The notes: generated by a model not told the origin, from the sequence alone. A DNA stretch of 2,486 nt from Dictyostelium discoideum (GCA_000004695.1 CH709176.1:1-2486), one strand, 5' to 3'. Counted from the stretch's first letter, positions 124 through 2,486 are shown. Numbers and translations: made by a program.

Positions 124-147
124 ACACAGCGAAGAAAAAACCACCTT
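124..147 (+). repeat. Direct repeat R, copy 1 (ACACAGCGAAGAAAAAACCACCTT)
   Basis: 24/24 identity with 2435-2458. Relatively GC-containing for this window, so chance recurrence is very unlikely. The 3' end (CCACCTTTAAA) is itself a member of the NNCCTTTAAAAT motif family. Confidence 0.85.
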
Positions 148-167
148 TAAATTCGCTTTAAATTAAA

Positions 168-185
168 TTTAAATTTGCTTTAAAG
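168..185 (+). repeat. TTTAAATTTGCTTTAAAG motif, copy 1 (+ orientation)
   Basis: 18/18 identical to 835-852. The 13-mer core AAATTTGCTTTAA also occurs reverse-complemented at 726-738 and 2457-2469. Confidence 0.8.
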
Positions 186-199
186 TCCTGAATTAAAGC

Positions 200-271
200 A
201 ATTTTAAAGGTAATTTTAAAGGTAATTTTTAAGGTTACTTTAAAATTACCTTTAAAATTACCTTTAAAATT
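200..271. repeat. 72-bp near-perfect palindrome made of 12-bp tandem units (ATTTTAAAGGTA x2-3 on the left arm, TACCTTTAAAAT x3-4 on the right arm)
   Basis: Arms 200-224 and 247-271 are exact reverse complements (25 bp). The 22-bp spacer 225-246 is itself symmetric except for 3 central pairs. The right arm continues with a further 11-mer variant to about 285. Both arms are flanked by GTCCTGA (185-191 and 309-315) in direct orientation. Confidence 0.9.
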
Positions 272-293
272 ACCTTTAAATTACCTTTTTAAT

Positions 294-337
294 CGCTTTA
301 AAAGCGAGGTCCTGAGTTAGAAGCCGTTAATTAACGG
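294..337. promoter_or_regulatory. Cluster of two short GC-anchored palindromes: CGCTTTAAAAGCG (294-306, near-palindrome) and CCGTTAATTAACGG (324-337, perfect 14-bp palindrome)
   Basis: Seen directly. CCGTTAA|TTAACGG is a perfect dyad. This is a rare GC-containing symmetric site in an AT desert, immediately next to the large palindrome. Its function is unknown. Confidence 0.5.
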
Positions 338-378
338 ATAACCCTTTTTAAATTTTTTTTTTTAATCCCCCTCAAAAA

Positions 379-447
379 TTACCAAAAGGGATTCGATCCC
401 CCGACCCTCTATCAAAGGGTAGTCTCATCAACCATTACACCATTTGA
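379..447 (-). tRNA. tRNA-like remnant or fragment, possibly derived from a tRNA-Ile(GAU). It carries an anticodon-arm-like and a T-arm-like stem-loop, but I could not build a complete cloverleaf
   Basis: Minus strand reads ...gagact ACCCT ttgatag AGGGT c GGGGG atcgaat CCC(tt) ttggtaa... This gives a 5-bp stem with a 7-nt loop that has T at loop position 2 and A at loop position 6, so anticodon GAT. It is followed by a G/C stem closing the loop ATCGAAT, one mismatch from the TTCGAAT T-loop consensus. This is the only GC island in the 5' kb. Against: the variable region would be only ~1 nt, no D-arm or acceptor pairing can be found, and GAU is an organellar or bacterial-type Ile anticodon. Confidence 0.25.
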
Positions 448-550
448 TTGCTTTGATGAAAAATTTAAAAATGATAGAATATTTTATCCCCATTTTTTTG
501 TTCTAAAATTAGATCTTTTTTATTAAAAACCTTAAATTTATGTTTAAAGG

Positions 551-615
551 AAATTTAAATTCACTTTAAATCTACTTTAAATCTACTTTAAATCTACTTT
601 AAATCCTATTTAAAA
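551..615 (+). repeat. 11-bp tandem array, about 5 copies of TC(T/A)ACTTTAAA, ending in the variant TCCTATTTAAAA
   Basis: Seen directly: tcactttaaa tctactttaaa tctactttaaa tctactttaaa tcctatttaaaa. The period is 11 bp. Confidence 0.9.
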
Positions 616-621
616 TTAATT

Positions 622-662
622 TAAAATAAATTTTAAAGGTATTTTTAAATATCTTAAAAATT
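622..662 (+). repeat. ~105-bp-spaced direct repeat, copy 1 (AAATTTTAAAGG(T/A)ATTTTTAAATATCTTAAAAATTA)
   Basis: 628-662 matches 733-767 with one mismatch (t640 vs a745). Copy 2 lacks one 12-mer unit further downstream. Confidence 0.75.
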
Positions 663-722
663 ATCTTAAAAATTACCTTTAAAATCACCTTTAAAATCAC
701 CTTTAAAATTGCTTAAAAATTT
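651..722 (+). repeat. 12-bp tandem array, 6 units: ATCTTAAAAATT x2, ACCTTTAAAATC x2, ACCTTTAAAATT, GCTTAAAAATTT
   Basis: Seen directly. The ACCTTTAAAAT units are the same 12-mer family as the right arm of the palindrome at 247-285. Confidence 0.9.
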
Positions 723-725
723 ATT

Positions 726-738
726 TTAAAGCAAATTT
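726..738 (-). repeat. AAATTTGCTTTAA core motif, reverse orientation
   Basis: TTAAAGCAAATTT is the exact reverse complement of the 13-mer core at 171-183 and 838-850. Confidence 0.7.
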
Positions 739-780
739 TAAAGGAATTTTTAAATATCTTAAAAATTACCTTAAAAATGA
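727..780 (+). repeat. ~105-bp-spaced direct repeat, copy 2
   Basis: See copy 1. Copy 2 continues ATTACCTTAAAAATGA, a one-unit-shorter version of 661-686. Confidence 0.75.
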
Positions 781-834
781 ATTTTTTAAACGCGGCTTTA
801 AATTCAATTTAAATCCAATTTAAATCAACTTTTC

Positions 835-852
835 TTTAAATTTGCTTTAAAG
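835..852 (+). repeat. TTTAAATTTGCTTTAAAG motif, copy 2 (+ orientation)
   Basis: Exact 18-mer match to 168-185. Confidence 0.8.
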
Positions 853-991
853 GTGCATTTTTCTTTGCTGTGTAATTTTTATTTAGTATATTGTTGATTA
901 ATTTCTCTGCCACTTGGTTGGAACGAAAAATTCGAAATGGATTGGATTGGAACAAATTGAAACAAATTGAAACAAGTTTAATTTAATGTTT

Positions 992-1053
992 AAAAAAAAA
1001 AAAAAAAAAAAATTTTTTTTTTTTCTTTTTTTCTTTTTTTTTTTTTTTTTTTT
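992..1053. repeat. Homopolymer junction: A21 (992-1012) abutting a ~41-nt T tract (1013-1053, C at 1025 and 1033)
   Basis: Seen directly. A(n)T(n) is self-complementary. Read on the minus strand, the T tract is an oligo(A) run of ~41 nt with two G interruptions, so this is two poly(A)-like tracts tail to tail. Confidence 0.9.
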
Positions 1054-1110
1054 CCATTGGGACCTATCATTGGATAATTAAATTAAATATAATTAAATCA
1101 GCAAATTTTA

Positions 1111-1128
1111 AAAAAGATCGAGTTATCC
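1111..1128 (+). repeat. Left arm of an 18-bp perfect inverted repeat (AAAAAGATCGAGTTATCC)
   Basis: Exact reverse complement of 1531-1548 (GGATAACTCGATCTTTTT). The arms are about 400 bp apart. Confidence 0.85.
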
Positions 1129-1530
1129 GGAATAAATTCAGTTTTTTCCAAAAAAGTTTTTTTTTGAAAAATTTTTCACTTTTCATATGTTTTTTTTTTT
1201 TTTTAATAAAACACATTATTTAAAACAAAAATTTTAAATAATATTAAACAATATTTGTTAACAACTATCGTAGAATTAAATTTGGTTGTATTTATTGAGA
1301 AATAAAGAAAAATATAAAAAAAATGAACTTCGAAAAAAAAGGGACTTCAAAAAAAAAAAACTACATATGAATAATCAATCCTTTATTTGAGCCCCGGTAT
1401 TTTTGATTTTTTGTCAATCATACTATTTATTTTATTATTTATTTTAATTGTGAATAAATAAAAAAATTAAAAAAAAAAAAAAATAATATGGCCAATAAGA
1501 ATTTTTTCGCGAAAAGATTGATCTTTTCTG

Positions 1531-1548
1531 GGATAACTCGATCTTTTT
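1531..1548 (-). repeat. Right arm of the 18-bp perfect inverted repeat
   Basis: See the left arm. The internal segment 1129-1530 contains the GC cluster GAGCCCCGGTA (~1390-1400), duplicated ACTTCGAAAAAAAA / ACTTCAAAAAAAAAAAA (1328-1360) and an A15 run (~1470-1485). Confidence 0.85.
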
Positions 1549-1689
1549 CAAAATAACTTTTTTTTGTTCAGAATTCAATTATTCACAGAAAGGTCCATTG
1601 TTGTTATATAGGATTATTTCAATAACAAATAAATTAATTGTAAATAAAAATAATTATTTGAACAAAAATCCAATGAAATTTCAGAATTT

Positions 1690-1713
1690 AAAAAAAAAAA
1701 AAAAAAAAAAAAA
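1690..1713 (+). repeat. A24 homopolymer
   Basis: Seen directly; followed by GTGTATATATATTTAA. Confidence 0.95.
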
Positions 1714-1793
1714 GTGTATATATATTTAATTTGTTTTTTATTTAAATAATTTAATAGTAAAAAATGATAAAATCAAATTTTATTATTAATATT

Positions 1794-1817
1794 TTATTAT
1801 TATTATTATTATTATTA
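1794..1817 (+). repeat. (TTA)8 microsatellite
   Basis: Seen directly: ttattattattattattattatta. Confidence 0.95.
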
Positions 1818-1835
1818 TAATCGGATTTTTTGACA

Positions 1836-1860
1836 GTGGGAGAGTTTGGGACACTGGGGA
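1836..1860 (+). other. G-run island (GTGGGAGAGTTTGGGACACTGGGGA) immediately after the microsatellite
   Basis: Three GGG(G) runs within 25 nt in an otherwise G-poor window; internally repetitive (TGGGAGA / TGGGACA / TGGGGA). Confidence 0.6.
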
Positions 1861-2039
1861 AATCAAAAAAAATTATTCAGCCAGTAATGGAATTCTGTAC
1901 AATTATTTGCCTTATTGTATTATTCACCCTACTTTTTTAAGCCTATAAAAATAAAAAAATTAAACCAAAATACATAATTATTAGAAAATTACCTGCCAAT
2001 TCAGAGTAAATATTTACGGTCTAGTGTAATGAATAATGA

Positions 2040-2290
2040 TTAAAAAAGAGATAAATTAAAGCAAATACAAACACGAATAAATTAAAAAAAAAATAAAAAA
2101 AAAAATAAATTCTTAGGTTTAAAAAAAAAAAAACTAAATTTGGTTTAAATTAATAAGATTTATTTATTTATTTTTTAAAAAAAAAAACAATTTTTAGGTG
2201 TACCAAGATTTATTTTTAAAAAAAAAAATAAAAAAAAATTAAATTCCAAAAAAAAAAAAAAGGAAAAAAATAAAAAAATAAAAAAAAATA
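2040..2290 (+). repeat. Strand-asymmetric A-rich low-complexity block with oligo(A) runs of 10-14 and degenerate ~50-90-bp direct repeats (TTAGGTTTAAA... / TTTTAGGTGTACCAAGATTTATTT... / TTTTAGGGACCTG...)
   Basis: The + strand is overwhelmingly A here, whereas 1-120 is T on the + strand. AAGATTTATTT recurs at ~2155 and ~2205, and TTAGG(T/G) recurs at 2113, 2195 and 2296. Confidence 0.7.
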
Positions 2291-2339
2291 AAATTTTAGG
2301 GACCTGATAAAATTTTATCTTTTACAAATATTTTAATCA

Positions 2340-2434
2340 CGATAATAACATTAGACTTTTAAAAGGATAAATACGTACGGATGCCCGAACGAACGTCAAT
2401 AGTTAACAGGTGGTACAATGGCCAAAGGATCAAC
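2340..2434. other. Most complex, GC-richer (~40-45%) segment of the window, immediately 5' of R copy 2; function unknown
   Basis: Contains CGTACG, GAACGAACG, GTTAAC, GGTGGTACAATGGCCAAAGG. A 33-codon ATG ORF (2381-2482, + strand) runs through it into the repeat but is too short and basic to call. Confidence 0.4.
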
Positions 2435-2458
2435 ACACAGCGAAGAAAAAACCACCTT
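2435..2458 (+). repeat. Direct repeat R, copy 2 (truncated by the window edge shortly after)
   Basis: Identical 24-mer to 124-147. The upstream flanks of the two copies differ (T-rich at copy 1, GC-richer complex sequence at copy 2), so the repeat boundary lies at or near ACACAGCG. Confidence 0.85.
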
Positions 2459-2472
2459 AAAGCAAATTTAAA
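2457..2472 (-). repeat. TTTAAATTTGCTTTAA motif, reverse orientation, adjacent to R copy 2
   Basis: TTAAAGCAAATTTAAA is the reverse complement of TTTAAATTTGCTTTAA. The longer stretch 2460-2484 (GCAAATTTAAATTTAATTTAAAGCG) is the exact reverse complement of 154-178. Confidence 0.8.
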
Positions 2473-2486
2473 TTTAATTTAAAGCG

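Follow-up and report, generated by a model that had tools for sequence, protein, structure and literature searches.

The window, by which we mean the whole 2,486-nt stretch of DNA analysed here, contains three copies of a 24-nt sequence, R (ACACAGCGAAGAAAAAACCACCTT). Two of these are exact (124-147 and 2435-2458), as the initial annotation had reported. A third copy (R', ACACAGCAAAGAAAAATGCACCTT), overlooked at that stage, lies on the minus strand at 850-873 with 3 mismatches (21/24), and it changed the picture: R and the inverted R' bracket a 750-bp non-coding module, module A (124-873). The features of the window are listed below.

124-147, plus strand: R copy 1, left terminus of module A; exact 24-mer, pairs with 850-873 in the MFE and centroid DNA folds
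148-185, plus strand: block X; TTTAAA core present four times at 11-bp intervals, the spacers being TTCGC, TTAAA and TTTGC
185-324, plus strand: 12-mer palindrome, with (AATTTTAAAGGT)n giving way to (ACCTTTAAAATT)n at 241/242
379-449, minus strand: weak tRNA-like relic in the middle domain; sub-threshold Rfam tRNA match
532-849, plus strand: right-arm arrays; units of 11 and 12 bp, all built on a TTTAAA-type core
791-852, plus strand: block X', an extended form of X; the two are in direct orientation
850-873, minus strand: R' (R copy 3), the inverted right-hand terminus of module A, 21/24 against R
874-2434, no strand: unique AT-rich non-coding interval, not a member of any repeat unit
2435-2458, plus strand: R copy 2, exact 24-mer; first terminus of a putative second copy, cut by the window end
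2457-2486, plus strand: block X, flipped with respect to R; 30/30 reverse complement of 154-183

Repeat R and the module between two of its copies

Matches to R with up to three mismatches were counted in 200 dinucleotide-preserving shuffles, and none was obtained (0/200). Neither the matching of R nor the inverted matching beside it is a chance event. The outer flanks of all three copies are mutually unrelated and the copies start at the same base, the A of ACACAG, as expected of an element terminus. R (plus strand, 124-147) and R' (minus strand, 850-873) are terminal inverted repeats, and the outer boundary is sharp in every copy. The flank comparison confirmed the earlier observation that the sequences upstream of the two exact copies are unrelated. 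Preference had been given to R as an element end or dispersed motif over the middle of a tandem unit, and the element-end view gained from the third copy, with three unrelated flanks, one common start base and two copies inverted around 750 bp. The other proposal, a repeat unit of about 2.3 kb, was not supported: positions 1-123 had no match to 2312-2434, and 874-2434 is unique, non-coding and AT-rich. As judged from the sequence, the 2.3-kb spacing of R is not a repeat unit. A circular or tandem 2311-bp unit was rejected on the same comparison of 1-123 with 2312-2434, and because the match following R is inverted and not direct. The 1561-bp interval between the copies shares nothing with module A beyond low-complexity repeats; a second, unrelated inverted pair (1105-1128 and 1531-1554, 23/24) lies within it. 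All three R copies fall inside 2.4 kb, and the 3' part of R (CACCTTTAAA) is also found as an array unit at 686 and 698.

TTTAAA occurs 48 times in the window, against about 10 expected, and 35 of these lie within 124-873 at a spacing of 11-12 bp. Arrays are present on both sides of a non-repeated middle (approximately 325-530), the 12-mers being mirrored and the 11-mers co-oriented. The arms of the 12-mer palindrome (195-241 and 242-288) are 87% complementary; a small palindrome, CGCTTTAAAAGCG, follows it within 185-324, and a direct repeat, GTCCTGAATTAAAGC (185-199) and GTCCTGAGTTAGAAGC (309-324), encloses the palindromic stretch. In the right-arm arrays the spacers flip between C-type and G-type orientation several times, which indicates that local flips recur here. 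In MFE and centroid DNA folds of 110-890 the R pair of module A base-pairs (z = -13 versus shuffles). GC skew is negative across both arms, and given this and the co-oriented 11-mers, module A departs from a clean foldback. An exact 18-mer, TTTAAATTTGCTTTAAAG, is common to X and X' in direct orientation (168-185 = 835-852). From one arm to the other, both R and the GGTAA-type 12-mers lying immediately inward of X are inverted, with X and X' direct between them; an inversion of X only is thus implied by module A alone.

The relic at 379-449 has an A-box-like TGGTGTAATGG, a B-box-like GGATCGAATCC and an anticodon-arm-like ACCCT-TTGATAG-AGGGT, with TTTTT two bases beyond its 3' end. The Rfam tRNA model matched it over its full length with 14.8 bits, below the gathering score of 29. 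Standard ARAGORN found no tRNA gene, and only the permissive metazoan-mitochondrial mode called Ile(GAT), at c380-448. A tRNA gene at 379-449 was rejected on the sub-threshold score and the absence of a call by the standard tRNA finder.

No open reading frame longer than 49 aa was present in the window under genetic code 11 and none of note under codes 1, 3, 4, 5 or 10; long reading frames under ciliate codes were discarded as low-complexity artefacts. Six-frame Pfam searches of 874-2486 returned no domain match, the window encodes no recombinase gene, and the putative element is non-coding. None of ten window ORFs (0/10) was present in an exact look-up of a 15-billion-protein collection. A degenerate R pattern had no match in viral contigs or prokaryotic genome contigs, and its two metagenome matches were dismissed as chance, as they lie inside phage ribonucleotide-reductase coding sequence (FWDTAKKNTPSD). 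A second pattern (309-337) had no match in genome contigs. The 18-mer AAAAAGATCGAGTTATCC in four viral contigs was likewise attributed to chance, the surrounding DNA being of ordinary GC content with little shared beyond the word itself. With blastn, the whole window had no match among plasmids and, among phages, only a low-complexity A-run match. Look-alikes of miRNA hairpins in Rfam on the 192-279 palindrome were all sub-threshold and were set aside. Full-text literature searches with strings taken from R, from the arrays and from the tRNA-like region retrieved no papers, and the literature on Dictyostelium 'thug-S' and on Dada transposons was of no help. Likenesses between R and three known signals (RSS heptamer/nonamer, Tetrahymena Cbs, poxvirus resolution sequence) were considered and dropped, as spacing or sequence does not seem to fit.

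The inverted block beside R

Positions 154-183 and 2457-2486 are exact reverse complements of each other. The inverted motif, given as 25 nt in the initial annotation, is real and extends to 30 nt, reaching the last base of the window; the match ends only where the window ends (2486). The tail of copy 2 agreed with the block of copy 1 at 28/28 positions inverted and at 22/28 direct. We also applied a scaffold null in which the phased TTTAAA cores were kept and the 5-nt spacers were drawn from the module's own pool, copy-1 spacers included; an exact inverted match arose in approximately 1 in 10,000 trials (p ~1e-4). The idea that an AT-rich motif family happens to occur in both orientations next to R is not compatible with these values, and the sequence comparison indicates that the orientation difference of the block reflects real shared ancestry. 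At the junction of R and block the copies differ by one T (CCACCTTTAAA vs. CCACCTTAAA), as previously described.

On the R side the flank is kept (24/24), and all 30 nt of the TTTAAA-bounded block are exactly reverse-complemented; the window stops short of the far flank of copy 2. The two sites bracketing the inverted segment have only CTTTAAA (7 bp) in common. The segment between the bracketing TTTAAA cores is 27 nt long with arms of 6-7 bp, two further TTTAAA cores sit inside block X, and X alone folds weakly (-3.8 kcal/mol). Copy 2 is visible for 52 nt only, and three module ends are available in the window. Compared with copy 1 it is identical in R (24/24) and, once flipped, in X (30/30); the right end of module A differs from R at 3/24 positions and carries two extra units. 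Copy 2 thus resembles a left-end-type terminus with X in the other orientation. Its junction type, R|T(T)TAAAGCAAATTTAAA, is that of the right end of module A read inward. An assembly artefact at the window end was considered and thought unlikely: the junction CACCTTAAAGCAAA is absent from copy 1 on both strands, and a near-identical junction, with one extra T, is present at the right end of module A.

Origin of the inverted block

We hypothesize, with a probability of about 45%, that R is the terminal sequence of a short, non-coding, repeat-built DNA element of foldback or MITE-like type, and that the flip of X is a fixed inversion rather than a programmed switch. Three R copies, their common outer boundary, an exact inverted block, no coding capacity and the pattern of orientations are the observations on which it is built. 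One complete copy would span 124-873, in the order R, X, 12-bp arrays with local palindromes, a non-repeated middle with a decayed tRNA-like sequence, arrays, X' and inverted R', and a second copy would begin at 2435, the window stopping 52 nt into it. The canonical end would be R-TTTAAA-GCAAA-TTTAAA..., the form that copy A has on its right side and copy 2 at its start; on the left side of copy A, inversion would have affected the 27 nt that separate two palindromic TTTAAA cores. The likeliest cause is an event between the self-complementary cores, either template switching during replication or mis-pairing in a hairpin, and the same process may have produced the many orientation switches inside the arrays. 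That the element was mobile, which of the two copies is derived, and that templates were switched are points we infer from sequence. Beyond 2486 the expected continuation is AATTTAAAGTCCTGAATTAAAGC..., collinear with 184 onward. Target-site duplications (TSDs) were scanned for lengths 2-10, allowing the terminus to move by as many as 4 bases; the types relevant here are 8-10 bp for foldback or Mutator-like elements and TA or TTA/TAA for MITE groups. No TSD of 3-10 bp was found around 124-873. The sole match was a 2-bp TA with the terminus taken as CACAG, which at 80% A+T carries no significance; copy 2 has CA at that place. The lack of such a duplication, the co-oriented 11-mers with negative GC skew on both arms, arms and spacer unlike those of documented spacer inversions, and the absence of a relative from the collections searched all count against this reading.

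It is somewhat unlikely, on our estimate, that no inversion separates copies 1 and 2 and that non-equivalent ends are being compared, of an element with inverted R termini and a directional interior in which X is direct at both ends. Copy 2 would then be an opposite-orientation module, in which case 791-873 and 2435-2486 would face each other across the 1561-bp interval as the inner portions of a large inverted repeat, or else a mini R-X-R' derivative formed by recombination within the 18-mer common to X and X'. Such an account needs no inversion across arms of 6-7 bp. It fits the sharing of the junction R|T(T)TAAAGCAAATTTAAA and of the closing ...AATTTAAAGC(C)GCG by copy 2 and the right end read inward, the co-orientation of all 11-mers in module A and the negative GC skew of both arms; the exact direct 18-mer could mediate a deletion, and a hypothetical R-X-R' folds as a near-perfect 82-nt hairpin. 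It would place AATTTAAAGGTGGTTTTTTCTTCGCTGTGT (mini element) or ...TTTAAAAAATTCATTTTTAAGG (right arm inward) after 2486, and AATTTAAAGTCCTG... in the 20-40 nt past 2486 would be contrary to it. Against it, copy 2 agrees with the left end at 24/24 in R and 30/30 in flipped X, whereas compared with the right end 3/24 positions differ in R, the two extra units are missing and the tail matches at 22/28. Further, X is still direct between inverted R and inverted 12-mers, so an earlier inversion of X in the family would be needed even here. We also think it unlikely that nothing mobile is involved and that the window is a locally evolved structural repeat region in which R was duplicated and inverted by local rearrangement. 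The region might consist of minisatellite-like TTTAAA arrays around a tRNA-like Pol III unit, or be an origin- or centromere-like AT-rich region, with the orientation differences of X as by-products of palindromic array turnover. The failure to find a TSD or relatives elsewhere, the clustering of the R copies within 2.4 kb, the double use of CACCTTTAAA as R 3' part and array unit, and the 11-12 bp phasing with frequent orientation switches, as in satellite-like turnover, are consistent with such an origin, and the pair at 1105-1128 and 1531-1554 suggests that short inverted duplications are common here. However, three sharp, identical outer boundaries beside unrelated flanks are more typical of insertions than of local duplication, and the 1561 bp between the copies has nothing of the module.

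The initial annotation had raised the possibility of flip and flop orientations of the segment next to R. The difference in orientation stood, as an exact 30-nt inverse; ongoing inversion by recombination or hairpins was not supported, in view of the 6-7 bp cores, the 27-nt length and the lack of a recombinase. A programmed flip-flop, in which a site-specific recombinase or every round of hairpin-primed replication inverts X and R is a replicon or element terminus, is in our judgement highly improbable. The exact inversion, its self-complementary bounds and its position directly beside a conserved terminal-like sequence would fit such a system, and the run of the match to the window end allows for a larger symmetry. 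But the arms around X are only 6-7 bp, and DNA stiffness makes a 27-nt segment far shorter than the length at which two recombination sites synapse. In addition, the window has no ORF above 49 aa and 874-2486 no Pfam domain, both sites are internal with unrelated DNA outside R and hence not at a molecule's end, and X folds at only -3.8 kcal/mol. The two orientations occur at two different loci and thus give no sign of switching at one. We consider it likewise highly improbable that the 27-30 nt block is a switchable subterminal segment of a small mobile or self-replicating element of an AT-rich eukaryote or organelle, with flip/flop ends arising through hairpin or template-switch copying at the phased TTTAAA cores and orientation changing at an appreciable rate at each locus.

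Comparison with known systems

Foldback elements consist of a terminal domain, a tandem-repeat domain and a non-coding middle domain (PMC4079207). Module A resembles foldback transposons (Drosophila FB, Tetris, Galileo-like; PMC4079207, PMC3573991) and MITEs in its inverted conserved terminal domain, short tandem repeats and non-coding middle, and also in the lack of an ORF, strong single-strand foldback potential and structurally variable copies. It differs in being far smaller (750 bp, with a 24-nt conserved terminus and 11-12 bp units), in that no 8-10 bp TSD was found around it, in its co-oriented rather than mirrored 11-mer arrays, and in having no sequence similarity to anything in the collections searched. 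Spacer inversion through template switching between short inverted repeats is a documented, reversible class of mutation, with arms of >9 bp and spacers of a few bp (PMC8604942). X is similar to these changes (PMC8604942, PMC7202029) in being an exact reverse complement between short inverted repeats, with flanks in place, in hairpin-prone DNA; changes of this type are reversible and recurrent. In contrast, the arms of X are 6-7 bp palindromic cores and its spacer is 27 nt, and its inversion is deduced between paralogous ends, not from one locus across strains.

Other systems are more distant. Parvovirus flip/flop palindromes and poxvirus telomere hairpins share with X the reverse-complement isomers beside a conserved terminal sequence, but they depend on a physical DNA end, on extended self-complementary arms and on an enzyme that nicks or resolves; X has none of these. 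Hin/Gin/Cin, fimS and shufflons likewise have a segment in both orientations between inverted sites; their segments are hundreds of bp, their sites 13-30 bp and a recombinase gene is adjacent, unlike the 27 nt, 6-7 bp and missing gene of X. Entamoeba tRNA arrays carry tRNA-type sequence within AT-rich short-tandem-repeat spacers of non-coding DNA. Module A is alike in that AT-rich short tandem repeats lie to either side of its tRNA-type sequence, but this relic scores below threshold (14.8 bits), no tandem repetition of the unit is seen and inverted R copies delimit the flanks.

If the fixed inversion in a repeat-built element is correct, the locus would add one more small non-autonomous element of this kind to those of an extremely AT-rich genome, and it would show cleanly, in a natural sequence, a short inversion with palindromic hexamers at its bounds. 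Its use would lie in repeat annotation and in illustrating template-switch mutagenesis in phased palindromic arrays, with no new biological principle. Only coexistence of both orientations of X at one locus would, if true, give it greater weight, by pointing to an unusual replication or transposition intermediate. Phased 11-bp TTTAAA arrays were also located in viral contigs, at 34 loci, of which 0 were related in sequence; among them is L011, a giant-virus contig dense in genes whose intergenic repeat is a simple one.

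Three copies of R and the module that two of them delimit

In the 2,486-nt window (G+C 20%) the 24-bp repeat R, ACACAGCGAAGAAAAAACCACCTT, was found as exact matches at 124-147 and 2435-2458, and a search allowing up to three mismatches located a third copy, R', on the minus strand at 850-873 (ACACAGCAAAGAAAAATGCACCTT). No match to R appeared in 200 dinucleotide-preserving shuffles. The direct repeat reported in the initial annotation is thus exact, and its suggestion that R marks an element end is supported by a more structured arrangement than was described there, with three copies, two of them bracketing a module (module A, 124-873). 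The outer flanks of the three copies are mutually unrelated, and similarity starts each time at the same A of ACACAG. Positions 1-123 did not match 2312-2434, which rules out both the proposed 2.3-kb repeat unit and a circular overlap of the window.

The inverted 25-mer next to R proved to lie within a longer reverse-complement match, exact over 30 nt, between 154-183 and 2457-2486 and halted only by the window end. The tail of copy 2 matches the block beside copy 1 at 28/28 positions inverted and 22/28 direct. Since TTTAAA is self-complementary and phased here, we built a null model in which these cores were kept and the 5-nt spacers were drawn from the module's own pool; the exact inverted match arose in about 1 in 10,000 trials. 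Together, the shuffles and the core-preserving null show that the observation is correct and not due to chance.

TTTAAA occurs 48 times in the window against about 10 expected, and 35 of these cores lie within 124-873 at 11-12 bp spacing. Nothing in the window has coding capacity: no ORF exceeds 49 aa, genetic codes 1, 3, 4, 5, and 10 gave no ORF of note, ciliate-code reading frames are of low complexity, and Pfam scans of 874-2486 in six frames were empty.

Features of module A and the following interval
124-147: R, left terminus of module A
148-185: block X, four TTTAAA cores with spacers TTCGC, TTAAA, and TTTGC
185-199 and 309-324: direct repeat (GTCCTGAATTAAAGC and GTCCTGAGTTAGAAGC) bracketing the 12-mer palindrome plus CGCTTTAAAAGCG
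195-241 and 242-288: arms (87% complementary) of a near-perfect palindrome, formed where the 12-mer array reverses at 241/242
After the 12-mer palindrome stretch, before the middle: two small palindromes
Non-repeated middle: holds a weak tRNA-like sequence (minus strand)
532-849: 11- and 12-bp arrays
791-852: block X', a longer version of X
850-873 (minus strand): inverted R'
874-2434: 1561 bp of unique AT-rich DNA with long homopolymers, up to copy 2

The hairpin array appears to have been inserted, or to have expanded, between the duplicated flanks at 185-199 and 309-324. In single-stranded folds of 110-890, R paired with R' in the MFE and centroid structures alike (z = -13).

Orientation of the block beside R

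Sequence read inward from each copy
Copy 1: R TTTAAA TTCGC TTTAAA TTAAA TTTAAA TTTGC TTTAAA G...
Copy 2: R -TTAAA GCAAA TTTAAA TTTAA TTTAAA GCG (window end)
Copy 3 (reverse complement): R' TTTAAA GCAAA TTTAAA GAAAAGTTGA TTTAAA TTGGA TTTAAA TTGAA TTTAAA GCCGCG ...

Copies 2 and 3 have the same junction type, which makes copy 1 the odd one out. Between the arms of module A both R and the GGTAA-type 12-mers just inside X are inverted, whereas X and X' are in direct orientation and have an exact 18-mer in common (168-185 = 835-852). A direct X between two inverted neighbors indicates that X alone was inverted, with palindromic cores as its bounds. Spacers in the arrays switch between G-type and C-type orientation many times, so small flips recur at this locus. 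GCGAA inside R (129-133) is the reverse complement of TTCGC, the first X spacer in copy 1 (152-156), and the corresponding spacer of copy 2 (GCG...), where the arrangement is flipped, would instead be a direct repeat of GCGAA; at 5 nt this correspondence may be chance.

Copy 2 agrees with copy 1 at 24/24 positions of R and 30/30 of the flipped X, while the right end of module A differs at 3/24 positions of R and carries two extra units. These identities are consistent with a left-end-type terminus at copy 2 that kept the canonical orientation, the left end of module A having flipped. Alternatively, copy 2 could correspond to the right end, as part of either an entire module turned the other way or a mini R-X-R' element arising by X/X' deletion, which at a hypothetical 82 nt would be a near-perfect hairpin. 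Co-oriented 11-mers and negative GC skew throughout both arms favor a directional interior. The identity pattern, in which copy 2 matches the left end in R and flipped X, speaks against this alternative. Past 2486, a local inversion would give AATTTAAAGTCCTGAATTAAAGC... with the left end otherwise collinear, the mini element predicts AATTTAAAGGTGGTTTTTTCTTCGCTGTGT, and the opposite-orientation module would go on like an inward reading of the right arm, ...TTTAAAAAATTCATTTTTAAGGTAATT.... The three continuations should open alike, with AATTTAAAG or a close variant, before diverging into TCCTG..., GTGGTTTT..., or right-arm-like sequence.

The exact match and the orientation pattern of module A indicate that a block of 27-30 nt has truly been inverted, one of the possibilities raised in the initial annotation; flip and flop states in the sense of a programmed inversion are unlikely. 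The sites measure only 6-7 bp, a 27-nt DNA segment cannot loop for synapsis, and the window holds no recombinase or any other gene. Moreover, X by itself folds weakly (-3.8 kcal/mol) and both sites are internal, away from any DNA end. The two orientations occur at two separate loci, not one. Most likely the flip is a mutation that became fixed in phased, hairpin-prone repeats, and the mechanism we favor is template switching of the polymerase from one short inverted repeat to another, which would have inverted X. Such spacer inversion is a documented and reversible class of mutation (PMC8604942), although in the documented cases the arms exceed 9 bp and the spacers are very short, compared with arms of 6-7 bp, a spacer of 27 nt, and two further internal cores here.

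Module A as a possible mobile element or local repeat region

In foldback elements a terminal domain is followed by one of tandem repeats and then by a non-coding middle (PMC4079207), and module A has a matching architecture. No TSD was found at the module ends, only a 2-bp TA if the terminus is CACAG, where copy 2 has CA. R and other unique strings of the window had no true relative in the material searched, which comprised viral, prokaryotic-genome, and metagenome collections, plasmids, phages, the protein collection, and paper texts. Given the matching architecture but the failure to find a TSD or relatives, we describe the module as working like a small foldback/MITE-type element and do not claim membership; a purely local, non-mobile repeat region is a serious rival.

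The tRNA-like sequence in the middle (379-449, minus strand) matched the Rfam tRNA model over its full length at 14.8 bits (threshold 29). Standard ARAGORN called no tRNA gene in the window; mitochondrial mode alone called Ile(GAT) here. Near-consensus A-box-like TGGTGTAATGG and B-box-like GGATCGAATCC are separated by about 30 nt, and TTTTT lies two bases beyond the 3' end. The sequence may represent a tRNA gene in decay or else a Pol III-type unit borne by the module.

Other features of the window and TTTAAA arrays elsewhere

Additional features
536-546: ATTTATGTTTA, matching WTTTAYRTTTW, the ARS consensus of budding yeast, at 11/11 positions, just ahead of the right-arm arrays
946-975: ATTGAAACAA, three copies
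992-1053: A21 run adjoining 41 nt of T-rich sequence, with a 24-nt perfect palindrome, A12T12, at 1001-1024
1105-1128 and 1531-1554: inverted pair unrelated to R, ATTTT(A/G)AAAAAGATCGAGTTATCC, 23/24 identical, enclosing 402 bp, AT-rich
1690-1713: A24 run
1780-1818: (TTA)13

The inverted pair at 1105-1128 and 1531-1554 may bound another small element; no convincing TSD was seen for it, only AA/AT dinucleotides. Viral-contig matches to its 18-mer core were dismissed as chance, lying in ordinary-GC DNA unlike the window. The ARS-consensus match at 536-546 is probably chance, with three such matches in the window against roughly one expected by a rough estimate. Homopolymers as extreme as these are atypical of bacteria or phages and suggest an AT-rich eukaryote as the source. 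Taken with the base composition and the lack of genes, the long A/T runs give the impression of nuclear or organellar DNA from such a eukaryote, one of very high A+T content.

Arrays of at least five TTTAAA cores, phased at exactly 11 bp with variable 5-nt spacers, also occur in several ordinary-GC phage contigs (viral contigs L010, L015, L017, L018, L020, L024, L026, L028, L031-L035, and L039), unrelated in sequence to the window. One group of these contigs has conserved flanks in common, and the arrays look like phased sites for protein binding, all facing one side of the helix.
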